The notes below the pieces were generated by a model. It searched no databases. It was not told where the DNA came from and was given only the letters and a program-made list of their open reading frames with translations. 64,000 nucleotides of DNA, from assembly GCA_026421205.1 (NCBI GenBank), contig JAPKBM010000001.1, positions 1,893-65,892 of the forward strand, written 5' to 3'. How positions within the stretch are numbered: position 1 is the stretch's first letter; each line of letters begins with the position of its first letter. Shown here in pieces: positions 16,082 through 38,871 of this stretch. Origin of the DNA: Planctomycetota bacterium. GTDB lineage: Bacteria; Planctomycetota; UBA1135. The position numbers were made by a program, and so were the translations under genes.

Positions 16082-16920
16082 TTTCTTACGAGGGCAACGT
16101 CTTCCGACCCCCCTCAGAAGCGAACAGCCTCATCCTGCAGGCAACGCTAGGTTGCAGTTGGAACCGCTGTACTTTTTGCAGCATGTACCGAGACAAAAAA
16201 TTCCGCGTTCGAAGTCTCGATGACTTAAAGCGTGAAATTCAATGGGCAAAAGACAATATCGCCCCCGTCCGAAAAGTTTTCTTGGCCGATGGAGATGCTC
16301 TCATGGCAAAAGCATCTTTCCTCGAAGATATCTTGGACCAATTAGCCGACGCCTTCCCCCATTTACAGCGCGTCAGTGTTTACGCTTCCCCGCAGTCTCT
16401 CCAGGTGCGCACCGTTGAAGAAATGACAATGCTTCGGGAAAAGGGCCTCCGTCTTTATTACGTTGGACTAGAAAGTGGAGACGACGCAACACTCCTTCAA
16501 ATGGACAAAGGAGTTGATGCAAAAGAATGGGAAAGGGTGGCCGGAAAAGCCCATCAAGCCGGCGTAAAATTATCTGCCATGATTCTTCTGGGAGTTGGTG
16601 GAAAAGCACTCAGTCACCAACACGCCATGCACTCCGCAAACCTAGTCAATGCCATTCAACCGCGGTTTTTAAGCACACTGGTGACCACACCATATCCAGA
16701 AACACCGTTGATTCAGCAAGTGGAAACAGGAGAGATCTCCATGCTCAGCGAAGAAGAACTTCATCAAGAGTTCACAACGTTCCTGGGAAATCTAGAACTT
16801 CATGGAACTATTTTCAGGTCCAATCACGTAAGCAACCGAAGTGTTCTTGCCGGAAATTTCCCGAAAGACAAGGAAGCTCTTCTTTCTGCTTTAGAAGATA
16901 GCCGACCTCAATCCACGTAG
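16078..16920 (+). CDS. Radical SAM protein (no auxiliary-cluster domain)
   Basis: FRPPSEANSLILQATLGCSWNRCTFCSMY gives a Cys triad with Cx4Cx2C spacing (16153-16179). FLADGDAL, YVGLESGDD. No further Cys clusters in its 280 aa. Confidence 0.8.
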   Translation: MISYEGNVFRPPSEANSLILQATLGCSWNRCTFCSMYRDKKFRVRSLDDLKREIQWAKDNIAPVRKVFLADGDALMAKASFLEDILDQLADAFPHLQRVSVYASPQSLQVRTVEEMTMLREKGLRLYYVGLESGDDATLLQMDKGVDAKEWERVAGKAHQAGVKLSAMILLGVGGKALSHQHAMHSANLVNAIQPRFLSTLVTTPYPETPLIQQVETGEISMLSEEELHQEFTTFLGNLELHGTIFRSNHVSNRSVLAGNFPKDKEALLSALEDSRPQST

Positions 16921-18830
16921 CCAAGTTCTTTCAGTCTCGCCATACGTTCGGCACTATTTTCTGCGGAACTTCGCTCAAACAAAGCATCAGCTTCGGCAAA
17001 CTTCTTAGCTAGGCTTTCCAACTCTCTCAAAGGCGCTTCTTTGGGCGCCGCACTCAGCTGATTATTTTTCTCTTGCGGGTCCGCAATCAAGTCAAATAAG
17101 GAAATGGAGTGGGCCGCCTCGCCATCCAAACGCGCGTGCAATTTCCAGGAACCTTTGCGTACCGCCAAATGAGAAGTCCACCGAGTGAAGTGTGGGTAAT
17201 CTTCCCACAAGCCGTCCAAAATATTTCGGCCCTTTAGTCCCCCTTGAGGCAAGCCCGCAAGCGCAAAAATTGTGGGAACAATGTCCTGCAAATGAACCGC
17301 GTAGGGCAAATGCTTTTGAGGGGCAGAAAAACCATTCAGGCCAACAAAGACAAAAGGAACGCGCACTAAAGCCTCCTGAAGTGAATTGGAATGAAGCATT
17401 TTCTTCCACTCACCGAAGTGCTCTCCGTGATCTGAAGTAATGATCAAAGCAGTAGGACGCTTGCCCGTCTCAATTTTCTGAACAAGCTGGCGCAAAAGGC
17501 CGTCTAAAAAGAAAACTTCTTCGTCATACAAGTCTCTCATGGATTGCAAGGTCAACGCGGAAACGCTAGAAGAAGACAAGTCTTTTTGAATCATCCGAAG
17601 TTGATCATGCCCCCCCAAAGGATGTGCCTGGAATTTTTTTTCCACGCCTTGCATTGAAAACCACTTCCCCGCGGTAGCCATTGGGGGCGTATACGGATCA
17701 TGCGGATCCATAAAATGGGCAAAAAGAAAACCGGGGGCGCGTTGCTGGTGGATTGAAGAAAGATAACTTTCTGCACTTGCCCAAGTTACTTGCCCCATCC
17801 CAGGCGGCATTCTTGATGCTTGATCCTGAATCCCAAGCCAATTACGAACAAAATCCTTCGCGGGTCTTGGCCGCAAAAGCATGAAGGCCCAAGTCCGGGG
17901 AACCGCCTGAGCCACGAATCGGTCTGCAGGGCCAATACTGCCCACTACTGAGTCATCATAAACATCAAATCCTGCACCAAAACCAAAGCTAGATGCCAAA
18001 AGTGCATTGCTAATCACCCCTGCCGTGCGCCAACCCGCACCCTGTAAGGCCTTCGCCAGAAAAGGCATGGATTCTGTCGGCTGTTCCAAATTAGAACGCA
18101 ATCCGTGTTGAACCGCGCTCAAGCCCGTCAACATGGTGACGTGTGCGGGAACAGTTTGATTGCTACTGGACAGTGCATAGTCCGACGTGATGCCGACGTC
18201 GGCTAATTCAGAAAGAATAGGAAGTGTGGAGCGCCCGTCATGCTCAAAGTCTGCGCGCAATGTGTCAATGCTCACCAAAATAATGTCGGGAGAATCCTTG
18301 GAAACCACGCGCGAAGAGGCTGCCATGTTCTCCGCAAAATGAGGCCGTACTGTCTCCGCAGTCATATCCTTTGCGGGAATCAAAAAGGCGATCAACCATG
18401 CCAAAGGCGCCAAGCCGGCAATGCGTTTCAAAGCGGACAAGGTTGGGGCTCCACGGGAAAAAAATCGGGGAGCGAAAAAATAAACCAGTAAAGGAGGGGT
18501 TGCCCATAGAAGGCGGACTGCTGCCTTCATGGCTGGCGAATATGCCGAAGCATTGGGAGGAAGCCAATACAAACAAAAAGGCGTAATGCCGATGGCAATG
18601 CCTATCCAAAACCCTTGTGAAGTCTGATGTCGGCGTTGAAAAAAACCTCCTGCTTTAGGAAGACGTGTTCCGGCAAAAGAAAGGGCCCAGAAAATAATTG
18701 CGGTCGAAAGCGTGCCCGCAACCACAATGAGTAGATATTCTCGTCCAAGGCCTGCCGCAGGGACAGGGATTTGGAGGAAGGCATCCAATAGTGCCAACAA
18801 ACCAGCACCGGCAAGAATTCCTGGAAGCAT
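16908..18830 (-). CDS. Membrane-anchored alkaline-phosphatase-superfamily 'sulfatase-like' protein (LtaS/EptA-like architecture)
   Basis: About 170 aa of N-terminal TM helices. ILVSIDTLRADF, SNQTVPAHVTMLTG (Thr), TSDHGEHFGE. C-terminus RLKELGYVD. Confidence 0.85.
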   Translation of the reverse strand: MLPGILAGAGLLALLDAFLQIPVPAAGLGREYLLIVVAGTLSTAIIFWALSFAGTRLPKAGGFFQRRHQTSQGFWIGIAIGITPFCLYWLPPNASAYSPAMKAAVRLLWATPPLLVYFFAPRFFSRGAPTLSALKRIAGLAPLAWLIAFLIPAKDMTAETVRPHFAENMAASSRVVSKDSPDIILVSIDTLRADFEHDGRSTLPILSELADVGITSDYALSSSNQTVPAHVTMLTGLSAVQHGLRSNLEQPTESMPFLAKALQGAGWRTAGVISNALLASSFGFGAGFDVYDDSVVGSIGPADRFVAQAVPRTWAFMLLRPRPAKDFVRNWLGIQDQASRMPPGMGQVTWASAESYLSSIHQQRAPGFLFAHFMDPHDPYTPPMATAGKWFSMQGVEKKFQAHPLGGHDQLRMIQKDLSSSSVSALTLQSMRDLYDEEVFFLDGLLRQLVQKIETGKRPTALIITSDHGEHFGEWKKMLHSNSLQEALVRVPFVFVGLNGFSAPQKHLPYAVHLQDIVPTIFALAGLPQGGLKGRNILDGLWEDYPHFTRWTSHLAVRKGSWKLHARLDGEAAHSISLFDLIADPQEKNNQLSAAPKEAPLRELESLAKKFAEADALFERSSAENSAERMARLKELGYVD

Positions 18831-18877
18831 GAGGGAAGTTTATCTTGGAGCCAATCCGCGTGATACCTTTTCCTGCC

Positions 18878-20638
18878 ATGCGACTTCTCCCCAACCTTCT
18901 CGCCGCCCTTTCGGGATACGCGTTTACCGTATTTGCGGTCGGGGTTCTCTCTGCTTTACAAAACGCCACCGCGCAAGGCTGGTCCGACCTCGGCTTTGAC
19001 TGGCTGACCTTGGATGCTTGGAGTCGACTTCATGAATCCAAAGAAGGGGTGGTTGGAGGGGTGTTGACCTTGGTATTGGCCTGCACCGCCGACCTCCTTC
19101 CCCCAGCTTTCCTTCCCGCTCTTTGGGTTCGAAAAGCGGTGAATCTTTTTTCCAAACCCCTCGCTTGGCTCGTGCTTCTTGCCTGCGCCTATTTATTGCC
19201 CCCTGCCCTCGCATCGGCCACCCAACCGGATGCGCCTAAAGATGCGCCTAATATTCTTTTTGTCCTTGTGGACACATGGCGCGCCGACCACGCCGGATTT
19301 TTAGGTTATGCCCGCGATGTCAGCCCTGGCCTGGACGAACTGGCGAAAGAAGGCGCTATTTTCGAAACCGCCGTCGCCCAATCCGGCTGGACCAAGCCCA
19401 CCGTCGCCACGTTATTCACCGGCCTCGTCCCGTCGGCTCACGGTGCTGTCAGTCAACCCATTCCTGGCATGGCCGTACATGGCACGAAGCTGCCCCCGGA
19501 TCGCACCACCTTCGTGGAAATTTTTCGGGCTCATGGCTGGGATACGGCCATGTGGTCCAACAATCCGAATATCTTGCCCACGCATGGTTTCGGTCAAGGC
19601 GCCGGATATTTTCGGAGTTTCGTAGGGGAATCCGTCGGCGAACGCTTTGATGCGGGAAGGGCAGAGTGGATGTTGCCCGAAGTGGAGACTTGGCTTGCAA
19701 GCCGTGACGAGAATCGCCCTTTTTGCGCCTACGTGCACATCATGGACCCGCACTACCCCTATGTTGCCCCCAAGCCCTTTGCGGGGACGTTTGACCAATC
19801 TGGCTTGGATTTCCAGCTCGATGGCGCTCTGATTGGGGATTATTTAGAAGGTCGGAAAGATATTTCCGACGTCACGCCGGCCATGCTGCAACGTATTTTG
19901 GATATTTATGACGAAGAACTGCTTTATGTGGACCATTACCTCACGCCCTTTTTGCGGAAAGTCCGCAAGGAGCACCCCAACACCCTCATCGTCTTAGTTG
20001 GGGATCATGGCGAGGAATTCCTAGAGCACGGTCAATTTGGGCACGGACATAGCATTTATGAGGAGCTCGTTCATGTCCCCCTTGTGTTGTGGGGCCCCGG
20101 CATCCCCGCTCAGCGCCAGGCACTTCCCGCAAGACAAATGGATGTTCTTCCCACCCTGATGGAACTTGCAGAGATTCGTCATGCGGCCACGGAAAGCAAG
20201 ATACATGGCTCCAGCCTTGTTGACATCCTCCACGGCAAAGAGACTGTGCGAAGAAATGCTCCGATGGAAAGCGGCGGCGATCAACGCCCACCTTGGCATT
20301 GGCGGGGTATATCCAACGGAGAGTGGAAGGTCATTTTGAGAGAAAAGGACCTTCCCTGTGCAAAGATAATTCCTATTTTGTCGGAAAAAGATGGGGATTC
20401 TCAAGCCCCCTGGACCCTCCTATTTCACCTCACCAAAGATTCTGGCGAACTCCAAGATCTTAGTGCTCAAAACCCAGCCCTTCTGCGGCAATGGATGACC
20501 ACCCTAGAGCAAAGTGGCTGGCTCTTCCCCCCCACAACCATCCTTCAATTAGGAACCTCCGACGGGAACATCGGGGCTGACTTGGAACTTCTCAAGGAAT
20601 TGGGCTACATCGACGCGGATGCCGTCGGCGGTCAATAA
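18878..20638 (+). CDS. Membrane-anchored alkaline-phosphatase-superfamily 'sulfatase-like' protein
   Basis: ATG at 18878 (the track start at 18845 is TTG). N-terminal TM region. ILFVLVDTWRADHAGFLGY, SGWTKPTVATLFTG (Thr), VGDHGEEFLEHGQFGHGHS. C-terminus LLKELGYIDADAVGGQ. Confidence 0.85.
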   Translation: MRLLPNLLAALSGYAFTVFAVGVLSALQNATAQGWSDLGFDWLTLDAWSRLHESKEGVVGGVLTLVLACTADLLPPAFLPALWVRKAVNLFSKPLAWLVLLACAYLLPPALASATQPDAPKDAPNILFVLVDTWRADHAGFLGYARDVSPGLDELAKEGAIFETAVAQSGWTKPTVATLFTGLVPSAHGAVSQPIPGMAVHGTKLPPDRTTFVEIFRAHGWDTAMWSNNPNILPTHGFGQGAGYFRSFVGESVGERFDAGRAEWMLPEVETWLASRDENRPFCAYVHIMDPHYPYVAPKPFAGTFDQSGLDFQLDGALIGDYLEGRKDISDVTPAMLQRILDIYDEELLYVDHYLTPFLRKVRKEHPNTLIVLVGDHGEEFLEHGQFGHGHSIYEELVHVPLVLWGPGIPAQRQALPARQMDVLPTLMELAEIRHAATESKIHGSSLVDILHGKETVRRNAPMESGGDQRPPWHWRGISNGEWKVILREKDLPCAKIIPILSEKDGDSQAPWTLLFHLTKDSGELQDLSAQNPALLRQWMTTLEQSGWLFPPTTILQLGTSDGNIGADLELLKELGYIDADAVGGQ

Positions 20639-20708
20639 ACCCAAAACTTGAAGGTGTAAAGACTTGGAATGGCTCGCTAGAATTTCAAATACCGAGGCCC
20701 CTTCCCAA

Positions 20709-21356
20709 ATGTCCGCACTCAACAAGACTCTTTTTCGAAAAACCCAAGGCTTCTTCCTCGCCAAGGTTCAAAAACATGTCTATCAACGCAGGGTGCTCTA
20801 CGTGATGGACAGAGATCTATCTCTTCCGGATCCCGTCATACCGCAGGGGAAAAACTCGCCCATGTGGGAAGATGAGCAAAATAAATTTACCATGCCCCTC
20901 GCAACGCATGAGAACATAGACGGCATGGCGGCTCATTTTCCTCCCTCCAAGCTAAAAATCCTCCACAACCGCGTCGATGACCCAGCAATCGACTTCACAT
21001 TTGCGCCCAAAGAGGACGGCTCCTGCTGGGGATATCTGATGCACGCCATAGCACCGTACTATGAAAAACTATATAATTACACCGTGGACCCTGGAAAATC
21101 TGGGGTCTATCAATTCGATGGTTGGGTCAACCCTCACGACAGAGGTCGGCTCGTGGCGATTCTCGGGATAATTTTCATGTTTAACCGACGTCGTCAAGAA
21201 GGCTATCGGCGTATTCGCGTCATTGTTTGGGCCAATGACACACGCTCTCTACGTCTACACAAGCGCTTTGGCTTCCAAGAAGTCCAACGTTTGCTTTATA
21301 CGCGTCTTGGCCCTTTCCGCTGGACGCGCGCACTTCCTGGACCGACTGTTGACTAA
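20709..21356 (+). CDS. GNAT-family acetyltransferase (putative)
   Basis: The C-terminal part MFNRRRQEGYRRIRVIVWANDTRSLRLHKRFGFQEV resembles GNAT motifs A and B. The start is uncertain (ATG 20709 or TTG 20664). Confidence 0.5.
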   Translation: MSALNKTLFRKTQGFFLAKVQKHVYQRRVLYVMDRDLSLPDPVIPQGKNSPMWEDEQNKFTMPLATHENIDGMAAHFPPSKLKILHNRVDDPAIDFTFAPKEDGSCWGYLMHAIAPYYEKLYNYTVDPGKSGVYQFDGWVNPHDRGRLVAILGIIFMFNRRRQEGYRRIRVIVWANDTRSLRLHKRFGFQEVQRLLYTRLGPFRWTRALPGPTVD

Positions 21357-22050
21357 CGACCCAGCCAATCTCCTCACCGCACCCGCTCGCCCGGGTGCAT
21401 TAGACCGTTTGCCTGGTGCGGGCCAACGCGGAGAATTCCTTCGGCTCATGTCCAAACTCCGTGACATCCAAGGGAAAGATGCACATTTCGCCATCTGCTT
21501 TACTTCGGCACTTCCCGGAGAAGGATGTAGCACCATGGCGGCCCAGTTTGCCTGCGCCGTGGCTCAATCCGGTGCCGGAGAAAAGGTGCTCCTCATTGAC
21601 GGCAACCTCAGACACCCCAATCTCCATGAACTCTTAGAGGTGGATGACGCGGACGGCGTTTTGGATGTTTGCATGGCGGGGGTTCCTGCAGACCAAGCCA
21701 TTCAATCCACTGAGTTGGAAGATTTAGATGTACTGACGGCGGGCAACCGCAACCAAAGCCCCAATCCAGATTTCCTGAACCCCTTGCGGTTTCGTGATTT
21801 GATTCGCAGTTTAGTGACGCAATATGACCTTGTCGTTGTGGATGCTCCCCCGGTGGCCATGGGCACCGCCGCCACCCACCTCTCCAAAGAAGACGCGGCC
21901 ACGCTACTTGTCGTTCAAGCATCCCAAACTCGCCGAGAAGTGATTCAAGGCTCTATCCATGAACTGAAACTCATGGCTGCTCATGTCGCGGGGGTGGTTT
22001 TAAACCGCCGACGTTATTTCATCCCCAGTTTCGTTTACAGACGCCTCTAA
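21349..22050 (+). CDS. BY-kinase-like (CpsD/CapB/Wzc-cytoplasmic-domain) P-loop ATPase with degenerate catalytic motifs
   Basis: Walker A region ICFTSALPGEGCSTMAA: Cys codon TGT at 21526-21528 where GK[ST] has Lys. Walker A' VLLIDGNLRHP (D-x-N instead of D-x-D). Walker B YDLVVVDAPP. Start uncertain: TTG 21349 is the first start candidate after the GNAT stop region, while the track ORF begins at 21223 inside the GNAT gene. Confidence 0.7.
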   Translation: MTNDPANLLTAPARPGALDRLPGAGQRGEFLRLMSKLRDIQGKDAHFAICFTSALPGEGCSTMAAQFACAVAQSGAGEKVLLIDGNLRHPNLHELLEVDDADGVLDVCMAGVPADQAIQSTELEDLDVLTAGNRNQSPNPDFLNPLRFRDLIRSLVTQYDLVVVDAPPVAMGTAATHLSKEDAATLLVVQASQTRREVIQGSIHELKLMAAHVAGVVLNRRRYFIPSFVYRRL

Positions 22051-23111
22051 TGTTTGCAACACAACTTCAGAAAGCAGCAAGGACCGGCCTTCTTGCATGT
22101 GTCAGCCTATGGAGCTGTGCTTCAGAGACGGTGGTCTCTCCGGTGCCGCACACAAATCCCACAGGGCACCATGAAACAGCCGTCGTTCCGGTTACCGAAG
22201 AGCGGCCCATTGAAGAATCCCGGTATATCCCGCGGTATCACCTCAACCCTGGCGACAACCTTGCCGTAAGTTTTCACTTTGGAACAGGCGACAGTGACTT
22301 GGAATTTCACCTAGAAGCTGGAGACAAAGTGGAACTGAAGGCTCTCTTTCACGAAGAGCTGGATGGCGTATACACCATTCGCCCCGATGGCATTATTTCC
22401 TTGCCATACAAAGGAGCTATAAAAGTGGCTGGGCTAACTCCGGAAGATTTGGTTGATTATTTAACAGACCTCTATTCCGACATCTTCCGTCGGCCCTCTT
22501 TTTCTATTCAAGTCACCGCAGCGGAACAAAGGGTTATTGAGCTCAAAGCGCTCTTGGGTCGCGGAGAAACAAGCCAAAGCATTGCCACTTCTCTAGGGCC
22601 AGATGGTTACATTTCCCTTCCTCTTGTTGGAGAAATTCGAGCAACAGGGCTCACCGTTTCCCAAGTACAGCAAGTCCTTGAAAATGAATACCAACAGCTC
22701 CACGACAGCCTCAGCATTTCTGTCATGCTCACGGGCACGGCGGGCTTCGGCGTCTTTGTCATGGGCGAGGTCATTGACCCTGGTCGCTACCCCATCAGTG
22801 CGCCACTCACGGCTTCTCGCGCACTTGCCCTAGCCAGTGGCCCAAACCCAGAGACTGCTGACTTGGAGCATGTGGTCTTGCTGACTTTGGACCCTGTAAC
22901 TGGAAAGGCAACGGCATCCTTTGTGGATCTCCATGCCGTCATGGTGCTCGGTGACATTTCCCGCGACCCCCTCATTGGTCCGAATGACGTTCTCGTGGTG
23001 CCCGCAACAAGCATCACCAAGATGGACCGTTGGGTGGAGCAATACATCGGAAAACTTCTCCTCTTCCGCGGCGTCGGCGCTTCGGTGGGTTACAGGCTGG
23101 AGGACGTGTGA
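22050..23111 (+). CDS. wza: Polysaccharide export outer-membrane lipoprotein, Wza family
   Basis: LLACVSLWSCASE lipobox. YHLNPGDNLAVSF and IRPDGIISLPYKGAIKVAGLTPEDL (Poly_export), followed by SLBB-like repeats (ISLPLVGEIRATGLTVSQV). TAATG junction with the upstream gene. Confidence 0.9.
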   Translation: MFATQLQKAARTGLLACVSLWSCASETVVSPVPHTNPTGHHETAVVPVTEERPIEESRYIPRYHLNPGDNLAVSFHFGTGDSDLEFHLEAGDKVELKALFHEELDGVYTIRPDGIISLPYKGAIKVAGLTPEDLVDYLTDLYSDIFRRPSFSIQVTAAEQRVIELKALLGRGETSQSIATSLGPDGYISLPLVGEIRATGLTVSQVQQVLENEYQQLHDSLSISVMLTGTAGFGVFVMGEVIDPGRYPISAPLTASRALALASGPNPETADLEHVVLLTLDPVTGKATASFVDLHAVMVLGDISRDPLIGPNDVLVVPATSITKMDRWVEQYIGKLLLFRGVGASVGYRLEDV

Positions 23112-26120: not shown

Positions 26121-26122
26121 TC

Positions 26123-28770: not shown

Positions 28771-29942
28771 AAATTCTCCAGGTGATTCCCGACCTCCGCG
28801 TTGGCGGTGCGGAACGAGTTGCCATTAACCTTTGCCAGGGATTTGTCGATAAAGGCCACCAAGTCCTCTTGGTTTCTATAAAATCCGGAGGCCCACAGGA
28901 AAAAATACTTCCCCAAAGTGATTTATTCTCACTCCAAATCCTAGGACTCCAACGCAGTTCTATTCTGCGCCCCCTTCATTTCTTTCGCGATTCTCGAAAG
29001 CTTCAACATAAATTATCTTCGGTCCTTCGGTCGTTTCAACCCGACGTCGTGCAAACCCATATCCCTGAAGATGACCTCTACTTATCTCGCGCTTGTGAGA
29101 AAACTGGAATTGGGGCTCATATCCCCATCGTTCACTCCCTCCAGTTTCATCTTCATCGTAAATCGCTTGACCTGCGCAGCCGACTTCGGCTTCGGCTCTT
29201 CAAAAGAGCCCTTCAAAGAGCAACGACCGTTTTAGCCGTAAGCGGTGCCGTAAAAGAAAAAGTCTTAGAACTTACCCAGCTCCCGGATTCTTCCGTCCAG
29301 GTTCTCCATAACGGGGTTGACCTCCGTCCTTTTCAAAATCTCGCAAAGAAAGACGAGGTCCGAAAGTCGCTTGGCCTGCCCTTAAACCGACCGATTATTT
29401 TTGGCGTTGGCCGATTTCATCCGGCTAAAAACTACCCCATGTTTGTTCGGGCATCGGCGCTCGTCCACGAAACACACCCCGACGCCCTCTTCGTTTTGGT
29501 TGGTGATGGGGAAGAAAGAGCTCCCATTGAAGCGGCCATTCACAAGACCAAGATGAAAGAGCATTGGCGCCTCCTTGGGCAGCGGGGGGATGTCCCGCAA
29601 TGTCTCAAAATCGCAGATCTCTTTGTGCAATCCTCAGACTGGGAAGGTTTCCCCGTGGCGGTCATTGAAGCCATGGCTGCCAAACTCCCCGTCATTGCCA
29701 CAGAAGTTGCGGGCGTCGGCGAGGTGATTCAGCATCAGAAAAATGGCTGGTTGATTCCTCCCGGAAATGAGCATGAATTGGCCGACGCCATCCGCCATTT
29801 GCTGGACCATCCGCAAGAAGCACAGGAATTGGCGAAGCAAGCAGAGAAACTTGCTTGGGAACACTACAATTTGGAGGCTTGGACTCGGCGCGCCGAATCC
29901 ATTTTGCAAAGAGCCTTGCGCTCTCCGGCTCCCTCCCCATGA
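28767..29942 (+). CDS. Glycosyltransferase family 4 (GT-B)
   Basis: MKILQVIPDLRVGGAERVAINL and the E-x7-E region EGFPVAVIEAMAAKLPVIATEVAGVGEVIQHQKNGWLIPPGN. Confidence 0.9.
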   Translation: MKILQVIPDLRVGGAERVAINLCQGFVDKGHQVLLVSIKSGGPQEKILPQSDLFSLQILGLQRSSILRPLHFFRDSRKLQHKLSSVLRSFQPDVVQTHIPEDDLYLSRACEKTGIGAHIPIVHSLQFHLHRKSLDLRSRLRLRLFKRALQRATTVLAVSGAVKEKVLELTQLPDSSVQVLHNGVDLRPFQNLAKKDEVRKSLGLPLNRPIIFGVGRFHPAKNYPMFVRASALVHETHPDALFVLVGDGEERAPIEAAIHKTKMKEHWRLLGQRGDVPQCLKIADLFVQSSDWEGFPVAVIEAMAAKLPVIATEVAGVGEVIQHQKNGWLIPPGNEHELADAIRHLLDHPQEAQELAKQAEKLAWEHYNLEAWTRRAESILQRALRSPAPSP

Positions 29943-31891
29943 GAACCCGCACCCTTCACGCCTGCTTCTTCGCCTTTGCCTTCGGCGCCATTTTGGCCGG
30001 AGTGGAAAGCTTGGTCGTTCTCCAAACTACGGGCCTAGCTTCCCTGTTCCCCTTTGTCGAAATTTGGGAAGTCCAATGGCGCTATGGAATCGTCAGCATT
30101 CTCTTTCTTCCCATTGCCTGGGGGCTGGCCAAACTCCTTCGACTTCGACAAGAATCCCCCTTCCAAACTGCAACTTGGGTTTTCCTCGGCCTCTCTTGGT
30201 TGATTGGCAATTGGTGGGTGCACTCCGAACTTTTGCGGAATGTTTCCAAGTGGGAGCCAACCTCTTTGGCGTGGTGGTTTGGAACCACGCTCACGGTGCT
30301 CTTCGGGCACCGCCTCCTCTGCCGGCTAGAGAAACATCGCCCTCTCTTCACCTTAGTCGCCATCGGGCTTTTTCTACCGACGCTTGGGCAAGTGGTCTAC
30401 GCGCCTTCGGCAAAGGAAACGACAGCCATCACGGCCAGCCCCACGGCGCCTGATGTCACGATCGTTGTCATTGATACTCTCCGCGCAGACCACTTAGGTT
30501 GCTATGGCTACCAAAGAGCGGATGGGGAAGAAACATCTCCTTTCATGGATTCCCTTGCTCAACGCGGGGCTTTGTTCGAAGACTGTTGGGCCCAAGCCCC
30601 GTGGACCCGCCCCAGTATGGCTAGTTTGCATTCGGGCCTTTACGGCTCTGCACACCAAGTCAATGACACCTTCAGCCGACTTCCCCAAGAAGCCATCACC
30701 ATGGCGGAACTTTTTCAAAACCAGGGCTACCGAACGGCGGCCTTTTCCGCCAATGAAAACGTCTCACCCGTATTTGGTTTCGATCAAGGCTTCGACCACT
30801 TTTGGAATACCGGTTCCCGTCCACTGATTACTTTCACAACTTGGGGAGACTGGAAACACAAACTCTATAATAAAATATTACGTCGAGCCATGTTTGATGG
30901 CGGAGATTGGGCCGCTCTCGTGAACCAACAGGTTTTTGCTTGGCTCACCGAAGAAAGCAAAAAGCCGACGTTTACCTATGTGCACTACATTGATCCGCAC
31001 ACGCCCTATGACCCACCTCAAAATGGTTATGCATTTGCCGGGGATCGCCCTGACCTTGCCCCTGTTTTAGAAACGGCCAAAACATTCCAACATGCGCGGA
31101 CCTATCCCTTTGGCGCACGAGACACGTTGTCCGACGACCTCCTAGGCCGCGTCATCAAACTTTACGATGCGGAAATTCGCTACGTAGATGGTCAATTGGA
31201 GCAATTGGTTGCGCAATTAAAATCTTCCGGAAACTTGGAGCCCCATGACTGGCTCTTCGTCATGTCCGACCATGGCGAAGAATTCCAAGAGCATCAGCAA
31301 TGGGGCCATGGACAGTCCTTATTTCAGGAACAACTCCACGTCCCACTTCTTGTACTTGGCCCCCAAGCAACCCCGGGGCACCGCATCAAAAATCCGGTCA
31401 ACCTCATTGATGTCCACGCCACCTTAGTCGGTATTTCTGGACTCAAGCAGACCCTTGCCAACTCTCCGGCCATTCCCCTGCAACCCTTGCTTCTTAAGTC
31501 ACCCTCTGCGCTCATTCGCGCTCAATATGCGGAACGACTCCAAGAAGGAAGAGCGCTCCACGCGGTTCGCAAGGGAATGCGCAAGCTCATCGATATGCCG
31601 GACCTTGAAGAAGAGGGAAACCGCTTCCGCATGTACTTTGACCTTACTCAAAATCCCCAGGAACAACTTACGGTGAAAGCCCCAAACTGGCGGGAAGGAG
31701 AAGAGTTGGACCGTCAAGATTCGGCCTTCCAAGCCCCCTTAGACCTCCTTCAACTTCTCGAAACTACTCTGAAATCTGCAATCCGCACGGCTCTCGGCGA
31801 GGAAACGGCTGAAGCCGACGCAGAAACGCAACGAAAACTTGCCGAACTCGGGTACATCGGCGACGACGGCAAACTTCAACTCGGAAACTAA
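29939..31891 (+). CDS. Membrane-anchored alkaline-phosphatase-superfamily 'sulfatase-like' protein (tandem copy 1)
   Basis: The ATG at 29939 overlaps the GT4 TGA (ATGA). About 190 aa of TM region. VTIVVIDTLRADHLGCYGY, APWTRPSMASLHSG (Thr), MSDHGEEFQEHQQWGHGQS. C-terminus KLAELGYIGDDGKLQLGN. Confidence 0.85.
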   Translation: MRTRTLHACFFAFAFGAILAGVESLVVLQTTGLASLFPFVEIWEVQWRYGIVSILFLPIAWGLAKLLRLRQESPFQTATWVFLGLSWLIGNWWVHSELLRNVSKWEPTSLAWWFGTTLTVLFGHRLLCRLEKHRPLFTLVAIGLFLPTLGQVVYAPSAKETTAITASPTAPDVTIVVIDTLRADHLGCYGYQRADGEETSPFMDSLAQRGALFEDCWAQAPWTRPSMASLHSGLYGSAHQVNDTFSRLPQEAITMAELFQNQGYRTAAFSANENVSPVFGFDQGFDHFWNTGSRPLITFTTWGDWKHKLYNKILRRAMFDGGDWAALVNQQVFAWLTEESKKPTFTYVHYIDPHTPYDPPQNGYAFAGDRPDLAPVLETAKTFQHARTYPFGARDTLSDDLLGRVIKLYDAEIRYVDGQLEQLVAQLKSSGNLEPHDWLFVMSDHGEEFQEHQQWGHGQSLFQEQLHVPLLVLGPQATPGHRIKNPVNLIDVHATLVGISGLKQTLANSPAIPLQPLLLKSPSALIRAQYAERLQEGRALHAVRKGMRKLIDMPDLEEEGNRFRMYFDLTQNPQEQLTVKAPNWREGEELDRQDSAFQAPLDLLQLLETTLKSAIRTALGEETAEADAETQRKLAELGYIGDDGKLQLGN

Positions 31892-33780
31892 TGCGCACAC
31901 TTTCCTACGCTTTCTTACTTGGCGTCATCCTTGCTGGGCTCGATACGGCAGCTCTTTTCCTCTACGACGGGAACATTCGTTTTCTGGACCCCTTCCATGA
32001 GATGTTAGCTCTTTATTGGAGGCACGGCGTTGCGGCCATGGTCCTCACCCTTGCTGTGCGCTTTCTCCGTCCGCAATGGAGCGGAAAAGCGTGGGCTGTC
32101 GGAGGATCCACGCTTCTATTTTTCACACTGAGTTTTCTATGGGTTCATAGCCGATTGATCACAGGGGTTCGTCTTTGGGAACCTGTTTCCCTCCTTGCCT
32201 CCGTTGGCCTCCTCATTGCAGCTTGGGGATGGTTCCGCCTTTGGACTCGCCTTGGAAGCGCGCACTTCGGAAATCCCTTCGCCCTCTTTTTCTGCCTCGC
32301 CTTCTTTTCCACTTGGATTCTCCAACGAGAAGTTGAAACCAATCTACCGGAAGTTCCCGTTGCTCAACAAGGACTTCCCGATATCACCGTTGTCGTCTTT
32401 GACACCCTTCGTGCCGACCGCCTCTCCTGCTACGGCTACGAGCGGCCTACTTCTCCCAACATCGACAAAATTGCTGAAGAATCTGTCCGATTTGATCAGG
32501 CTTTTGCCGTTGCCCCCTGGACCCGGCCCTCAGTGGCATCGCTCTTCACCGGCCTCCATCCCACCAGTCACGGAGCCTTTGAGCCCACACGCTCTTTGCC
32601 AACTTGGGCCACCACCATTGCCGAAGTCTTGCATGCACAGGGCTATCAAACTGGTGGCTTCTCCGCAAACGCCAACATCTCCGCGGTTTTTGGATTTGCC
32701 CAAGGCTTTGATTATTTTTGGTGTTTGGACGACAAAGAACTCGTCGATATTTCGACTTGGGGAGAGATCACCTTTCGTCTCCGCCGCCTTGCCCTTGCCA
32801 TGTATGAAACAGCCGACGACGCCCGATTGGTCAATGCCCAAGTTTTGCCATGGATTCAGTCCGTGGATAAAGATCGGCCAACGTACACCTATGTTCAATA
32901 TTTAGACCCGCACTTCCCCTACAACCCTCCCGTTGACTATCTCAACGAAGACAAGCCAAGTTATGATGCATTGTTAGCCGCAACGGACAATGTGAAAATT
33001 CGGCCAGAGCCTTTTCCTTTCGGAGACCGACCTCCCCCTTCCGCCGAAGTTTCAGAAGGATTCGCAAAACTCTACGATGCAGAAATTCGCTTCCTAGACC
33101 ATGAATTTCAAAACCTCCTCGATCAACTTGAGGTCCAGGGATTGCTCGATGAAAATGACTGGCTCATCCTCACCTCTGACCACGGCGAGGAGTTTTTTGA
33201 ACATGAACAATGGGGCCATGGACAAAACCTCTACGACGAAGTCATCCGGATCCCTCTCATTATCAAAGGCCCTGACGCACGCCAAGGCCTGACCGTCCAT
33301 AGCCCCGTAAGCTTGGTTGATTTACTCCCGACCCTTTGTGGCATTGCTGGTGCGGCCACTCCCGATTGCGTTGGGCAGCCACTTCAAAATCTTCTCTTGG
33401 ATCGCCCCGATGCACGACCCAGAAGGATTTATTCTGAAAAACTCCGGAAGCCTCAACAGTATTCCATGCAAGTGGAGCAACAAAAACTAACCGAGGTTTT
33501 CGAAAGTTCCGAGGGCCAATTCTTTCCCCTGTTTTATGACCTCACGACAGATTCGGCCCAACAAATTCCCTTTGTTGCCCCTCATCAATTGACGGCCGAT
33601 GTGCTCTCCACCGTTTCGCTTCAAGTAATCCCAGGAGAGTTCGTGGAAGCCATGAAAAATCTCCGGGATCTCCTGCAAGCCTCTCGCCTCATGGCGGAAT
33701 CCAAGAACCAGGGCGTGACGGACACGGAGTTGAGTGCGGATCAACTTGCCCGCTTAACGGAGTTAGGCTACATTCAGTAA
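31891..33780 (+). CDS. Membrane-anchored alkaline-phosphatase-superfamily 'sulfatase-like' protein (tandem copy 2)
   Basis: TAATG junction. About 160 aa of TM region. ITVVVFDTLRADRLSCYGY, APWTRPSVASLFTG (Thr), TSDHGEEFFEHEQWGHGQN. C-terminus RLTELGYIQ. Confidence 0.85.
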   Translation: MRTLSYAFLLGVILAGLDTAALFLYDGNIRFLDPFHEMLALYWRHGVAAMVLTLAVRFLRPQWSGKAWAVGGSTLLFFTLSFLWVHSRLITGVRLWEPVSLLASVGLLIAAWGWFRLWTRLGSAHFGNPFALFFCLAFFSTWILQREVETNLPEVPVAQQGLPDITVVVFDTLRADRLSCYGYERPTSPNIDKIAEESVRFDQAFAVAPWTRPSVASLFTGLHPTSHGAFEPTRSLPTWATTIAEVLHAQGYQTGGFSANANISAVFGFAQGFDYFWCLDDKELVDISTWGEITFRLRRLALAMYETADDARLVNAQVLPWIQSVDKDRPTYTYVQYLDPHFPYNPPVDYLNEDKPSYDALLAATDNVKIRPEPFPFGDRPPPSAEVSEGFAKLYDAEIRFLDHEFQNLLDQLEVQGLLDENDWLILTSDHGEEFFEHEQWGHGQNLYDEVIRIPLIIKGPDARQGLTVHSPVSLVDLLPTLCGIAGAATPDCVGQPLQNLLLDRPDARPRRIYSEKLRKPQQYSMQVEQQKLTEVFESSEGQFFPLFYDLTTDSAQQIPFVAPHQLTADVLSTVSLQVIPGEFVEAMKNLRDLLQASRLMAESKNQGVTDTELSADQLARLTELGYIQ

Positions 33781-34853
33781 CGACAAAGGCTTTCCTGAAT
33801 CGTCACCACTTGCTGAACAATCTGATCAAGATCAAAATGATCTTCTAGGTGTGCTTTCCCGGCATTCCCCATTTGAGTGCGTAATCCAGCGCTTGAGGCC
33901 AGTTGGTCCAAAACAGATGCCAGCTTAGAAACATCGCCGGGCTCCACGAGAAATCCTGTCTTGCCTTCCAAAACAGCCTCGGCAATTCCTCCTACGGGAG
34001 TTGACACAACAGGAAGTCCCGCGGACATGCTCTCAAGAACAGAGCCGGGTAGCCCCTCGTTATAAGAGGGCAAACAATAGATATCTGTTTTCTCCCAAAT
34101 GGCATCTTGCGCGGCGCCTGAAACCCACCCAGGGATTTCCACCACACCTTCCAGTTTCATTTCCTTCACCATGCCACGCGCTTTTTCCAATTCCCCATCT
34201 CCCGGCAAACAAAGCCGCAAATGAGGGTGACGCTTCACTAAACCTTGAAACGCTTGCAGTAAATCCCATGTTCCCTTTCGTTGGCCAACGCGCCCCATCA
34301 ATGTAATCGTGCAAAGTTCACGCCCTTCGCGGCTGACCGGCTTTCTCTTTGGAGCTGTATTCAGAACAATTTCAATGCGTGGTTCACGCTTGCAGATGCT
34401 CTTAAGCCAGTCCTCCCATTGCCTTGAAAGCAACATGGACACGTCAGCGTGCTCAAACATTTTCCGCATGAGCCAACGTCGGCAGGCGCCCCCATCTGCG
34501 TAATAATCTTTCGTGTTTGAACCGTGCAAATGCACAATAACGGGCTTCCGGCAAAGCTTCGACCACCAAAAGGGGAACTGCTTCCGCCAAAAACTTCCCT
34601 GCATTGCAAGATGCAAATGAACAACATCTGTCTTTGGCGTCCGACCCATGAGAGCCAAATAGGAGCGCAAAGCCTCAAAAAGTTTCCGGAATTTCTGGCC
34701 AGGGACCTGAGAATCATTGGTGGACAAGTAGCAAAAATCTACCTGCTGGTCATATCCAGCGCCTAACCAATTCTTAACTACCGTGGCAATCCCAGTGGTT
34801 GTCGACAATCCCAAGCCCATCATGGTGACTCGCGGTTTCTTTGACGAACTCAT
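33774..34853 (-). CDS. Glycosyltransferase family 4 (GT-B)
   Basis: EGLPGSVLESMSAGLPVVSTPVGGIAEAVLEGKTGFLVEPGD. 4-nt overlap with the upstream sulfotransferase gene. Confidence 0.9.
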   Translation of the reverse strand: MSSSKKPRVTMMGLGLSTTTGIATVVKNWLGAGYDQQVDFCYLSTNDSQVPGQKFRKLFEALRSYLALMGRTPKTDVVHLHLAMQGSFWRKQFPFWWSKLCRKPVIVHLHGSNTKDYYADGGACRRWLMRKMFEHADVSMLLSRQWEDWLKSICKREPRIEIVLNTAPKRKPVSREGRELCTITLMGRVGQRKGTWDLLQAFQGLVKRHPHLRLCLPGDGELEKARGMVKEMKLEGVVEIPGWVSGAAQDAIWEKTDIYCLPSYNEGLPGSVLESMSAGLPVVSTPVGGIAEAVLEGKTGFLVEPGDVSKLASVLDQLASSAGLRTQMGNAGKAHLEDHFDLDQIVQQVVTIQESLCRY

Positions 34854-35764: not shown

Positions 35765-35783
35765 AACGAGTGTGAAGTTTACC

Positions 35784-36569
35784 TCACTTTACAAAAAGCT
35801 TCTCATAAAGAACTTTTACAATCTCGCCGGAGTATTTGACACCTTTCATCGCCCAGCCCAAGGGGCCACGGGGCCCGTAACGATGCAAAATCACCCGCCA
35901 AGAGTCCAAGCCCGCCACCCGATTTCGGCTAATGGAATCTCCATGCATATGGAAAATGACAAGGGGCCCACCAGGCAAATAACGTACTTTTTTCCCTTGG
36001 GTTAAAAACTTTAAGAAAAAATCAATGTCTATTTTCTTCTTAAGACTTGCGTCGTAGTTCCCGACGCTCAAAGCCGTTTCTTTCCGATAGGCAGAGCCAG
36101 AATGCTTGAAAGGAAGGCGGGGAAGAATCAAGGTAGCCAATGCCATGACACGGTTGCTCCGCCAAGAACGATAAGAGCGCACCGAAGTTGCGCCGTCAGA
36201 GCGACGGGACTCAATATCTCCATAAAGTAAATCTAACTCCGGGTCGGCCTCAAAAGCCTTGGAAATCCTAGAAAGGGCGCCGTCGGCAAGCAAGTCGTCC
36301 GAATCTAGAATCACAATGATGGGGAAGCTGGCCAACTCAACACCCACACGACGCGCCTCACCGACGCCAGATTGTGCCTGGAAATAGACGCGCGCCTGAG
36401 GATGCTGTTCCCCCCACTGCTTGAGCCAGGTTCGCGTTTCTTCTTTCGAGCCGTCGTCAACCACCAAGATTTCCAGTGCGGGCCATTCTTGCGTGACGAC
36501 ACTTTGCAAGGCCTTTTGGAGGTAATCCAAACGGTTATGCGAGGCTACGGAAACGGTAATGGCTTTCAT
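35784..36569 (-). CDS. Glycosyltransferase family 2 (GT-A)
   Basis: ITVSVASHNRLDYLQKALQSVVTQEWPALEILVVDDGSKEETR and the DxD region VILDSDDLL. Confidence 0.85.
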   Translation of the reverse strand: MKAITVSVASHNRLDYLQKALQSVVTQEWPALEILVVDDGSKEETRTWLKQWGEQHPQARVYFQAQSGVGEARRVGVELASFPIIVILDSDDLLADGALSRISKAFEADPELDLLYGDIESRRSDGATSVRSYRSWRSNRVMALATLILPRLPFKHSGSAYRKETALSVGNYDASLKKKIDIDFFLKFLTQGKKVRYLPGGPLVIFHMHGDSISRNRVAGLDSWRVILHRYGPRGPLGWAMKGVKYSGEIVKVLYEKLFVK

Positions 36570-36693
36570 GGCTCCTAAGTCTTGGTCAGGAAATAGGTTA
36601 GGGTCTCTTCGTTTTCAGTGCAATCTCCAATTCTCCTGTATACTAACCATGGGTGTTGGTTTGATTCCTAGCCATCCTCATCTCTCTAAAATC

Positions 36694-38871
36694 ATGTACA
36701 AATTCCTGACCCTCTCTCTTTGTGTATTTGGCCTCTTAGCCGAACTCCCCGCCCAAAATGGACAAACCGCAAACGTTAGCTGGACCACAGATGGTGCTGT
36801 CAATTTTGAGGGTTTGGGCCGCCGGCTCTACGTTCCGGATGACCTCAACGGAGATGGTATTCGTGACCTTCTATCTGTAAACCCGCACGCCTCCACTAAT
36901 CTTCTCTCAGACAATGGTGCCATCCAGGCCATCTCAGGCAGCAGTGGGGATCTTCTCTGGAGATTAGACGGCGCCTATGACGGCCAACAGTTAGGGATTA
37001 ACCTTCCACGAGTCGAGGACCTGGATGGAGATGGTGTCCGTGATATGGTCACCATTACAAGCACAGCTTCCATGAATGGATTTATTCGAAACGGGTACGC
37101 CCAAGCCATATCAGGAACGACCGGTACCCTTATTTGGCAAAAATTCGGAATGTCTGACGGAGAAGAGTTAGGGACCTCTTACGCCAACGTAGCCGATATC
37201 AACGGAGACGGATCCCCGGAACTTGTCGTTGGCTCCGCCACCGCTTCCAGCATGGGCCTCAACCGTAATGGATATGTAGAAATGATTTCTGGCCGCTGGG
37301 GATTCACGGTTTGGCGCGTCAACGGTACGGCAGACTCGGAAGGTATTGGCGCTTATGTTGCACGCGTGGAAGACTTAAACGGTGACGGCATTGCTGACGT
37401 CCTTGCAGCCAACTCTGAATTCAGTTCCAACTCGCTCTACCACAACGGCATGGTCATGGCTATTTCCGGTCAAACCGGGCAGATCCTCTGGCAAACAACA
37501 GGGGCTCATGACAATGCATTGCTAGGTCAAAATGCAGAGAGCCTTCCCGACGTGAATGGAGACGGCGTGGACGACATCCTTGTTCTCAACCCAGATGGCT
37601 TCGGCACATGGCTTTCTGAAAACGGAAGCACCGTAGTTCTTTCAGGCGCCGATGGAAGCCAGCTCTGGAAATTCGAAGGATTCTTTAATGGAGAGCGCTT
37701 CGGAATGACTTGGATGCAGGTTGAAGACATGGATATGGACGGTGTCGGCGACATCGTTCTCGGTAGTCCAGAAGCTGACGCCATGGGCCTTCCAAGCTCT
37801 GGGCACGTCACAGCACTTTCCGGTGCGAATGGCATGATGATCTGGCAGCGCTCCGGAATGTATATGTATGGCCGCTACGGAGAAACTATCTTTGACGCCG
37901 GGGACATTAACGGAGACGGATTTGGTGATATTGTCATGGCCAGCCCAGCTGCTTCTACCGGAAGTTTTTGGAACCCTCTGACCGACAATGGTTTAGTAGA
38001 AGCCATTTCCGGAATGGGCGGCTATCCACTTTGGGTTGCCACAGGATCCATCTCTGGGGCTCACCTAGGAAACGCCATGATTGTTGCTGAAGACGTCAAC
38101 GGAGATGGATTCAAAGACTTCCTCTCCGGAAGTGGACTTGCTGATTCCGGAAACTTCGCCAACAATGGTGAAATCATGGCTATCTCTGGAATGGGTGGGT
38201 ATCCACTCTGGAGCACACAGGGTGACTCCAATGACGCTCACTTGGGTACAAATATCCGAATGATCAATGACCTTGACGGAGATGGAGTGGAAGAAGTTCT
38301 GTCTTGGGTCACCTACGCAGATACGGGCGACCTCATTAACAATGGTTCGGTGCGCGCACACAACGGTGCAACCGGTGCAGAACTTTGGCGCCACGATGGT
38401 AGTACCAATGACATGCGCATGGGTGATGCAGTCACCATGGGGGATGACTTTGACTTTGACGGCTTTGACGACATCTACGTCGCAAGCTCCGAAGCAGACT
38501 CCAATGGCTTGGCCGATAACGGTCGCGTCGTCGGGATCTCATCCGGCTTAGGAACAGCATTTACTGTCAGCGGCCTTACCGCGGGCGCTGACGCCAACCT
38601 CATGGCAACAGGCCTGACGCCTGGCGCCACCGCGTACTTCCTGGCCTCTACAGCAGGAGCAGGGACGACTTACCACCCACGCGGCTTCCCCATCGCCCTC
38701 AAAGAGCCCATCATGACCATCGGTGTGGCCACCGTAGATTCCAATGGCAATACGTCAACCTCCGTTTCTGTTCCAACAGGAACCAAGGACATTCAGGTTT
38801 GGATGCAGGTTCTCACAGTCAATGGGCGCGAAATAGGCCGCTCCCACTTAGTCAATCATGTGATTGAATAG
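36694..38871 (+). CDS. Secreted FG-GAP / integrin-alpha-like repeat protein (10 Ca-binding-loop repeats)
   Basis: ATG at 36694 gives MYKFLTLSLCVFGLLAELPAQNG, a signal peptide. There are ten D-x-[ND]-x-D-G loops about 55-60 aa apart: DLNGDGIRD, DLDGDGVRD, DINGDGSPE, DLNGDGIAD, DVNGDGVDD, DMDMDGVGD, DINGDGFGD, DVNGDGFKD, DLDGDGVEE, DFDFDGFDD. Each is preceded by [AI]ISG..G..LW. The C-terminal domain is about 110 aa. Confidence 0.85.
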   Translation: MYKFLTLSLCVFGLLAELPAQNGQTANVSWTTDGAVNFEGLGRRLYVPDDLNGDGIRDLLSVNPHASTNLLSDNGAIQAISGSSGDLLWRLDGAYDGQQLGINLPRVEDLDGDGVRDMVTITSTASMNGFIRNGYAQAISGTTGTLIWQKFGMSDGEELGTSYANVADINGDGSPELVVGSATASSMGLNRNGYVEMISGRWGFTVWRVNGTADSEGIGAYVARVEDLNGDGIADVLAANSEFSSNSLYHNGMVMAISGQTGQILWQTTGAHDNALLGQNAESLPDVNGDGVDDILVLNPDGFGTWLSENGSTVVLSGADGSQLWKFEGFFNGERFGMTWMQVEDMDMDGVGDIVLGSPEADAMGLPSSGHVTALSGANGMMIWQRSGMYMYGRYGETIFDAGDINGDGFGDIVMASPAASTGSFWNPLTDNGLVEAISGMGGYPLWVATGSISGAHLGNAMIVAEDVNGDGFKDFLSGSGLADSGNFANNGEIMAISGMGGYPLWSTQGDSNDAHLGTNIRMINDLDGDGVEEVLSWVTYADTGDLINNGSVRAHNGATGAELWRHDGSTNDMRMGDAVTMGDDFDFDGFDDIYVASSEADSNGLADNGRVVGISSGLGTAFTVSGLTAGADANLMATGLTPGATAYFLASTAGAGTTYHPRGFPIALKEPIMTIGVATVDSNGNTSTSVSVPTGTKDIQVWMQVLTVNGREIGRSHLVNHVIE

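Follow-up and report, generated by a model that had tools for sequence, protein, structure and literature searches.

The 64 kb stretch of Planctomycetota DNA analysed here, referred to as the window (contig JAPKBM010000001.1 of assembly GCA_026421205.1), harbors at positions 16908-38871 a candidate Wzx/Wzy surface polysaccharide or exopolysaccharide (EPS) locus that includes four membrane-anchored proteins with a Sulfatase domain, named S1 to S4. These four proteins have a sulfatase-like catalytic domain with an intact metal site, and an invariant threonine at the position where formylglycine would be formed in a sulfatase. Our preferred reading, to which we give an even chance, is that S1-S4 are periplasmic transferases that attach phosphodiester-linked groups to a sulfated, partly deacetylated polymer. 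The locus appears to be inherited, with rearrangements, in an uncultured and mostly marine lineage of Planctomycetota. An earlier note on this DNA had proposed a heavily substituted Wzx/Wzy surface polysaccharide with alkaline phosphatase (AP)-superfamily genes as part of the pathway; co-conservation, gene overlaps, a natural fusion of a glycosyltransferase to an S-type protein and a structural model of S4 all support this proposal.

Architecture, fold and active site of S1-S4

The four Sulfatase-domain proteins are the following:
16908..18830, minus strand: S1, Sulfatase E=5.3e-29, about five transmembrane (TM) segments, motif TVPAH, divergent from S2
18878..20638, plus strand: S2, Sulfatase E=9.5e-46, three hydrophobic segments, motif TKPTV
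29939..31891, plus strand: S3, Sulfatase E=7.4e-43, membrane-anchored, motif TRPSM
31891..33780, plus strand: S4, Sulfatase E=2.2e-46, five TM segments, motif TRPSV, the one that was modelled

They share an N-in membrane anchor of five N-terminal helices (three in S2) and an outward-facing catalytic domain. The AlphaFold2 (AF2) model of S4, calculated from a 60-sequence alignment, has a predicted local distance difference test score (pLDDT) of 91.7 and a predicted TM-score (pTM) of 0.89. The TM helices span residues 2-25, 34-59, 65-89, 98-123 and 127-144, and the catalytic domain follows. This confident model with its five TM helices bears out the earlier description of a polytopic N-terminal anchor joined to an extracytoplasmic AP-superfamily domain.

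The top 50 Foldseek matches of the S4 model in the PDB are all S1-family sulfatases (carbohydrate, choline or aryl) or phosphonate monoester hydrolases, at around 1e-23, and the target-normalised TM-score against the S1-family sulfatases is 0.6-0.7. The family profile matches choline sulfatase at E 1e-58, and YejM is detectable at E 1e-5. S1-S4 score 15-42 bits against the EptA, CptA, MCR and LtaS models, the cutoffs of which are 400-1250, and no LtaS or EptA structure is found among the PDB matches listed in either the profile or the Foldseek search. These comparisons and the model group the catalytic domain with the arylsulfatases (S1 branch), not with the LtaS/EptA/OpgB branch. The "LtaS/EptA/OpgB architecture" proposed earlier holds for the anchor and for the Thr and metal site, but not for the domain itself, which has the arylsulfatase (S1) fold.

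None of the four proteins carries the formylglycine motif (C/S)xPxR. A Thr stands at the position of the Cys or Ser, and it is invariant in 60 aligned homologues. Residues D171, T211, H227, H341, D430, H431 and H443 of S4 are invariant in 60 family members, S1-S3 included, and all four window proteins keep D171, T211, H227, N260, H341, D430, H431, E433 and H443. The metal site (D171, D430-H431) is therefore intact in each of them. Conversely, alignments read by eye indicate that other residues stand in for the Arg and the two Lys with which true sulfatases bind sulfate: at what we take to be the positions of R55, K113 and K375 in the Pseudomonas aeruginosa arylsulfatase numbering, S1-S4 hold V/M/H, T/S/V and His, respectively. 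According to SulfAtlas, formylglycine formation is impossible in PF00884 sequences of the Thr type, and the name sulfatase should not be applied to them (PMC5066984). On their residues, S1-S4 are not formylglycine sulfatases, and the Thr nucleophile favours phospho-substitution over desulfation.

Genes of the polysaccharide locus

The genes that accompany S1-S4 comprise an assembly and export set, followed by glycan-building and modifying genes:
20709..21356, plus strand: g3, 215 amino acids (aa), lineage-specific, possibly GNAT-like, with sub-threshold matches
21349..22050, plus strand: BYK, BY-kinase-like, TIGR01007 at 108.7 bits against a cutoff of 108.05, degenerate Walker A
22050..23111, plus strand: Wza, outer-membrane polysaccharide export (OPX) protein, Poly_export E=1.5e-27 and SLBB_2, orthologues ~50% identical
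23108..24616, plus strand: polysaccharide co-polymerase (PCP), weak EpsF, TIGR01005 and TIGR03007 matches, orthologues 35-39% identical
24567..26120, plus strand: Wzx (MOP flippase), MatE, Polysacc_synt and Polysacc_synt_3 above cutoffs, orthologues 50-60% identical
26123..27583, plus strand: Wzy-like polymerase, Wzy_C E=1.1e-20, polytopic, orthologues 37-42% identical
27580..28770, plus strand: NodB/CE4-type deacetylase, Polysacc_deac_1 at 44 bits against 23.1, PgaB-N-terminal-like, orthologues 44-50% identical
28767..29942, plus strand: GT4a, glycosyltransferase, Glycos_transf_1 E=7e-44, orthologues 48-55% identical
33774..34853, minus strand: GT4b, glycosyltransferase, Glycos_transf_1 E=5.1e-31, 62% identical to the orthologues in loci L002 and L004
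34850..35764, minus strand: ST, 3'-phosphoadenosine-5'-phosphosulfate (PAPS)-type sulfotransferase, Sulfotransfer_3 at 80.5 bits against a cutoff of 27, orthologues 60% identical
35784..36569, minus strand: GT2, glycosyltransferase, Glycos_transf_2 E=8.4e-24, orthologues 41-46% identical

Pfam and NCBIfam searches reproduce the domain calls made earlier for Wza, PCP, Wzx, Wzy_C, NodB, the two GT4 proteins, the GT2 protein, the sulfotransferase and the four Sulfatase proteins. Positions 16908-38871 hold 16 open reading frames (ORFs), all of them confirmed at the positions given earlier; each runs from a valid start codon to a valid stop codon without interruption. The genes from 20709 to 33780 are spaced by -8, -1, -4, -50, +2, -4, -4, -4 and -1 nt; this is the tight packing reported before, with overlaps of 1-8 nt plus a single 50-nt overlap and a single 2-nt gap. 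The plus-strand genes of this interval number ten, and not twelve as had been counted, or eleven with S2, located 70 nt upstream. The stop codon of GT4a overlaps the start of S3 by 4 nt (ATGA). Since the S genes and their neighbours overlap by 1-4 nt, the packing implies that they are co-transcribed and translationally coupled. A scan for promoters and terminators over 16000-35999 returns counts at about the level of shuffled sequence (11 vs 12.0, sd 4.0, and 35 vs 26.6, sd 6.0, respectively), and an Rfam scan of the whole window gives no match.

Indeed, neither a WbaP/WecA-type priming transferase nor a gene for nucleotide diphosphate (NDP)-sugar synthesis is present in the set of ORFs, each 150 aa or longer, that were taken as genes across the whole window. 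A priming transferase is not found in the loci of relatives either, and no Wzb phosphatase is found within the 64 kb.

Within the export set, the PCP scores only 51 bits with EpsF (cutoff 423). A hydrophobic segment lies near each terminus of the protein: the TM segment at 459-489 on the C-terminal side was scored computationally, and the N-terminal one was read by eye. The Wzy_C domain of 26123..27583 scores 74.3 bits against a cutoff of 31.7; as this domain cannot separate a polymerase from a WaaL-type ligase, it is the gene context that points to a Wzy polymerase. BYK had been described as a BY-kinase-like ATPase. It does reach TIGR01007, although barely, but the lysine of GxxxxGK[S/T] is missing both here and in eight orthologues: Walker A reads GEGCST in the window and GEG[T/A]TT in 8/8 orthologues checked. 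In Walker A', DxD has become DGN or DGH, the second Asp being lost, while a Walker B-like VVVDAPP is present. The C-terminus harbors a strictly conserved PSFVYRRL with one conserved Tyr, and a second Tyr occurs in the window protein only. Possible roles for BYK are those of a pseudo-kinase or of an adaptor that binds nucleotides.

The gene g3 precedes BYK. Its GNAT matches (ArsN1 E=0.0099, Acetyltransf_4 E=0.036, Acetyltransf_1 E=0.14) are all sub-threshold and cover residues ~136-207. Only three homologues, all unannotated, are found in 5.8 billion proteins, and the AF2 model based on a 4-sequence alignment (pLDDT 44.8) is unusable. To note, an orthologue with 67% identity occupies the same slot between S2 and BYK in a closer relative (L096), so that g3 is, on this comparison, a real gene; it is absent from the loci of more distant relatives. 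What had been assigned as a GNAT is thus a lineage-specific gene whose weak GNAT matches stay below threshold, and the idea of re-acylation leans on this weak call.

Two enzymes may modify the glycan before export. The NodB deacetylase displays both metal motifs, FDDG (DD) and HSMTH (H-x3-H), and ST displays the 5'-phosphosulfate-binding loop GTGRGGTT. As neither protein has a signal peptide, both likely act in the cytoplasm.

Conservation of the locus in Planctomycetota

Related loci were found through the contigs of S4 homologues and through a scan of GTDB genomes with a Wzx alignment. The S4 homologues come almost all from uncultured Planctomycetota. About a dozen loci from distinct Planctomycetota metagenome-assembled genomes and metagenomes (L002-L013, L096 and the P0006 contig) present the same gene order: x15518, radical SAM (rSAM), S1 on the opposite strand, S2 in some loci, BYK, Wza, PCP, Wzx, Wzy, NodB, GT4, an optional second GT4, S3, S4 and, further on, GT2, an optional GT4, ST, GT4 and PlsC (x15518, rSAM and PlsC are flanking genes described below). 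The proteins are about 33-62% identical to those of the window, indicating that the genomes are well separated.

S1, S3 and S4 are present wherever a contig reaches their position. S1 orthologues (32-36% identity) occur in 7/7 GTDB loci and also in L096, whereas S2 is found in about half of the loci, being present in L006, L008 and L010 (46-49% identity) and in L096, and lacking in L007, L009 and L012. The S3 and S4 orthologues are 43-47% and 40-43% identical, respectively. Several rearrangements distinguish the loci. The GT2-ST-GT4b block (33774-36569, minus strand) is inverted in the window, while it lies on the same strand as wzx and wzy in all relatives examined. The window lacks two additional GT4 genes of the relatives, in which two GT4 genes instead of one separate NodB from S3. 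An Acetyltransf_6 gene is variably present. The AP-superfamily genes are hence co-conserved with wzx and wzy across Planctomycetota at 40-60% protein identity despite these rearrangements, as the earlier proposal would have it, and from the comparison of the loci the arrangement is not due to chance. That it might already have been assigned a function had also been considered; our literature search found no paper that assigns one to this arrangement in Planctomycetota.

A further link comes from a natural fusion. A GT4a-like domain (45% identity) and an S4-like protein (38%) form a single polypeptide, P0028 (1088 aa), whose gene is part of a separate small locus (L001) that consists of a GT4 gene, the GT4-S fusion gene and an FG-GAP gene. 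GT4 domains use cytoplasmic NDP-sugars, and five hydrophobic segments lie between the GT4 and S domains of P0028, which places the S domain on the periplasmic side.

The wider Thr-type family

S4 matches 21,261 clusters (50% identity) at E 1e-30 or better. Among 244 close homologues, 56 have no readable motif; the nucleophile is a Thr in 186 of the other 188, and the two sequences reading Ser probably reflect a mis-registered pattern. Thr is also present in 71/71 metagenome ORFs with a readable motif, and CxPxR occurs in none of the 244 homologues nor in the metagenome ORFs. Many family members have one predicted TM segment or none. Distant members are fused to an MprF-type LPG_synthase_TM lipid-flippase-like domain (PF03706, six proteins) or to a GT-C PMT_2 domain, and several others are tandem S-S proteins, reminiscent of the neighbouring S3 and S4 of the window. 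These fused and tandem cases lie in L024, L033, L035 and L039 and include proteins P0179, P0221 and P0158. The domain combinations would fit work on lipid-linked glycoconjugates at the membrane.

A link to EPS or sulfotransferase genes was also considered for the family as a whole and was rejected, the neighbours being mainly paralogues and TPR proteins. From the neighbourhoods, the EPS link is a property of this clade and not of the whole family. In L014, a more distant, S4-like gene lies in a polysaccharide locus of another kind, together with genes for four or five sulfotransferases, an MBOAT protein and an ABC transporter, and in L015, a homologue is part of a pure cluster of five S-like genes. 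On the available sequences, the S enzymes are best described as members of a large Thr-type group, as yet without a name, that split off from the sulfatase branch.

Comparison with known systems

EptA/MCR, Opt, OpgB/OpgE, BcsG, LtaS and GacH all combine, as S1-S4 do, a polytopic N-terminal anchor with an extracytoplasmic AP-superfamily domain. The anchors of EptA and LtaS comprise five helices. The likeness extends to the active sites of these enzymes, with a Thr nucleophile, an Asp/Glu and Asp-His metal site and conserved flanking His residues, and the enzymes of this group are likewise encoded beside Wzx/Wzy or synthase systems or act on the glycans that these make. GacH transfers glycerol phosphate from phosphatidylglycerol to a rhamnose polysaccharide (10.1101/337519). 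Opt is a Shigella phosphoethanolamine (pEtN) transferase that acts on a Wzy-made O-antigen (PMC3728103), BcsG adds pEtN to cellulose (PMC8892547), and OpgB and OpgE are AP-superfamily membrane enzymes that modify extracytoplasmic glycans (PMC3818809). In contrast to the EptA/LtaS group, S1-S4 have the full two-lobed fold of S1-family sulfatases and a WT(R/K)PS motif, and occur as three to four paralogues per locus. With the formylglycine S1-family sulfatases (choline, carbohydrate) they share the fold and the metal-site motifs DxxRxD, DPHxPY and DHG, but they differ by the Thr in place of Cys/Ser, the loss of the C/SxPxR Arg and the added five-helix anchor.

The locus as a whole resembles those of sulfated EPS. 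Judged by the gene content given in the respective reports, Wzx/Wzy, PCP, OPX, glycosyltransferases (GTs) and PAPS sulfotransferases are likewise assembled in the synechan xss cluster of Synechocystis (PMC8205485), a studied example of a Wzx/Wzy sulfated EPS, and in the putative locus of Pontiella (PMC7356697), a bacterium of the Planctomycetes-Verrucomicrobia-Chlamydiae (PVC) group whose EPS is described there as mainly N-sulfated. The gene content reported for the putative sulfated-EPS loci of Vibrio and Actinoplanes (PMC11641403, PMC13390465) shows the same set. The locus may be regarded as a new member of this Wzx/Wzy sulfated-EPS kind. It differs by its S genes, as the legend of the Pontiella cluster lists no membrane sulfatase-like gene (PMC7356697), and neither "sulfatase" nor "alkaline phosphatase" is mentioned in the Actinoplanes paper. 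A Group-1 capsule locus (Wza-Wzc-Wzx-Wzy) similarly has contiguous OPX, PCP, flippase and polymerase genes, whereas here the kinase partner is separate, small and devoid of the Walker A Lys, and no Wzb or priming gene is found in the window.

A proposed pathway and its alternatives

The following scheme builds on the genes and their order as described above, and on the membrane topology, fold and active sites of S1-S4. An unlinked phosphoglycosyl transferase would prime undecaprenyl phosphate, and the repeat unit would be assembled by GT4a, GT4b and GT2 on the cytoplasmic side of the membrane. There, NodB would deacetylate and ST would sulfate the lipid-linked unit, N-sulfation of the freed amine being possible. 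Wzx would then flip the unit and Wzy polymerise it, while PCP, BYK with its degenerate P-loop, and Wza would handle chain length and export. At the periplasmic face, S1-S4 would load a phospho-head group from a membrane lipid onto their Thr and hand it on, either to the repeat unit once flipped or to the polymer as it grows; donor, transferred group and acceptor are the deduced parts of the scheme. The logic would be that of EptA/Opt, OpgB, BcsG and GacH, but evolved independently from the sulfatase branch.

Several observations weigh against such a phosphotransferase role. The catalytic domain is nearest to true sulfatases by both sequence and fold, so that the idea of a phospholipid donor draws on the nucleophile, the topology and analogy. 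Three or four phospho-decorations would be unusually heavy for a repeat unit built by three to five GTs. The operon structure is read from gene overlaps alone, and the synteny may in part be plain vertical inheritance, since genes unrelated to EPS (rSAM and x12409) are conserved as well. Finally, among the wider-family homologues (~30-36% identity), only about one third of the loci of at least 10 kb have a GT4, Wzy, PCP, BYK or Wza homologue nearby, as detected by BLAST with the window proteins, and in a Pfam census of 105 neighbouring ORFs, paralogues and TPR proteins dominate while GT4 accounts for only 3/105.

Of the other readings, the one that fares best, although we consider it unlikely, is that S1-S4 are periplasmic hydrolases (phosphodiesterases or phosphatases) that trim phosphodiester-linked groups, release the polymer from undecaprenyl-pyrophosphate or recycle the carrier. 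A Thr nucleophile with an intact metal site would suit hydrolysis equally well, the nearest solved relatives are all hydrolases, and the many family members with no or one predicted TM segment, among them a TPR lipoprotein encoded at 9275-11476, would be compatible with soluble hydrolases. The conserved five-helix anchor and the fusions to PF03706, GT-C and GT4 domains look more like lipid-using transferases, however, and three or four separately conserved hydrolases have no obvious role in a biosynthetic operon.

It is rather improbable that the S genes stand outside the polysaccharide pathway, kept beside it by inherited synteny, with products that modify the lipid A or core of lipopolysaccharide (LPS), periplasmic glucans or a lipid. 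The conservation of the unrelated neighbours rSAM, x15518, x12409 and PlsC, the divergent transcription of S1 and the location of most of the wider family outside EPS loci would agree with it. Yet S3 and S4 lie within the operon with overlaps of 1-4 nt, rearrangements and a varying number of GT4 genes leave S3 and S4 together downstream of the GT4 gene(s), and the GT4-S fusion of the second small locus (GT4, GT4-S, FG-GAP) ties an S domain to a glycosyltransferase independently.

We see little prospect that S1-S4 are genuine sulfate-ester enzymes, either editing the sulfation of the polymer after export, as the animal Sulf enzymes do on heparan sulfate, or moving sulfate from one position to another. 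The S1-family fold, sulfatases as best sequence matches, the sulfotransferase of the locus, and the L014 locus, where an S4-like gene accompanies four or five sulfotransferases, are what would be expected of them. The invariant Thr instead of Cys/Ser, the missing C/SxPxR Arg, the replacement of the presumed R55, K113 and K375 positions read from the alignment, and the exclusion of Thr-type sequences by SulfAtlas (PMC5066984) all speak against it, as does the lack of any sulfotransferase among the 25 commonest neighbour families of the wider family in the 105-ORF census. A more speculative variant, a long shot in our estimate, is that the Thr-type proteins form a new class handling sulfate, as a PAPS-independent periplasmic sulfate editor or transferase, or with a Thr oxidised to a ketone by a dedicated maturase. 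That some or all of S1-S4 act as non-catalytic scaffolds or regulators, as YejM/PbgA does for LPS, is least credible of all: four paralogues invite sub-functionalisation, YejM is detectably related (E 1e-5) and the partner BYK is itself degenerate, but all four proteins keep every family-invariant catalytic residue.

If the phospho-transfer reading is correct, S1-S4 would represent a second, independent origin of enzymes for phospho-decoration of glycans, derived from the sulfatase branch. The locus itself would bring a case from Planctomycetota to the small number of bacterial pathways known for sulfated polysaccharides. If the Thr-type proteins handle sulfate instead, a second, formylglycine-independent route to sulfate-ester chemistry would exist in a family of more than 20,000 clusters. 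In annotation pipelines, these proteins are labelled "arylsulfatase A-like"; if they are not sulfatases, sulfatase counts for Planctomycetota and other environmental bacteria are inflated, and a large enzyme family is left without known function. A compact conserved operon with three or four such enzymes, together with a natural GT4 fusion, offers a clean starting point for its study.

Flanking genes

The genes at both ends of the locus, some of which recur in relatives, are the following:
9275..11476, minus strand: fifth Thr-type Sulfatase-domain protein, motif TLPSH, lipoprotein-like signal (...LIAFSC), long C-terminal TPR region
11521..12399, plus strand: secreted protein of 292 aa, no significant family match
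12409..13251, minus strand: x12409, no significant family match, weakly methyltransferase-like, 51% identity in three relatives
15518..16081, plus strand: x15518, 187 aa, membrane-anchored, no family match, precedes rSAM
16078..16920, plus strand: rSAM, radical SAM protein of 280 aa, apparent Cx4Cx2C motif (CSWNRCTFC), convergent with S1 with a 13-nt overlap
36559..38871, plus strand: secreted FG-GAP beta-propeller protein, FG-GAP E=2.9e-32, hydrophobic segment at ORF residues 45-63
38959..39741, plus strand: PlsC-family acyltransferase, Acyltransferase E=3.2e-28, conserved edge of the locus

The FG-GAP gene had been omitted from the earlier note. Its real start is probably the ATG at 36694, just before the signal-peptide-like segment. 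The syntenic relatives have no such gene here. In the unrelated small locus L001, the gene immediately after the GT4-S fusion (13334-15079) encodes an FG-GAP protein with 31% identity, a hint that the two may be recurrent partners. At least in L002, L004, L013 and the P0006 contig, the locus is likewise bounded on this side by a PlsC orthologue, 42-44% identical where compared. The substrate of PlsC could be the glycan or a lipid anchor, or PlsC could be a mere syntenic neighbour.

At the other end, x15518 and rSAM lie beside S1 in all six GTDB loci that reach that far, and rSAM (61-64% identity) is the best-conserved gene of the neighbourhood. A role of this radical SAM protein (16078-16920) as a maturase of the S proteins was considered and rejected: its gene is convergent with S1, it has no SPASM-type match, and the radical SAM protein of L015 is non-homologous. 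The fifth Thr-type gene (9275-11476) lies 5.4 kb upstream of S1, outside the region; TPR proteins and paralogues are also the commonest neighbours of the family elsewhere. Other parts of the window (2847-9278, 43513-47203, 49874-60348 and 62750-63940) carry housekeeping genes, namely a TetR-controlled cluster for fatty-acid beta-oxidation, SCO1/CtaA/CtaB genes for the assembly of cytochrome oxidase, a MoxR/DUF58/BatA/VWA operon and, at the window end, a gene for myo-inositol-1-phosphate synthase.

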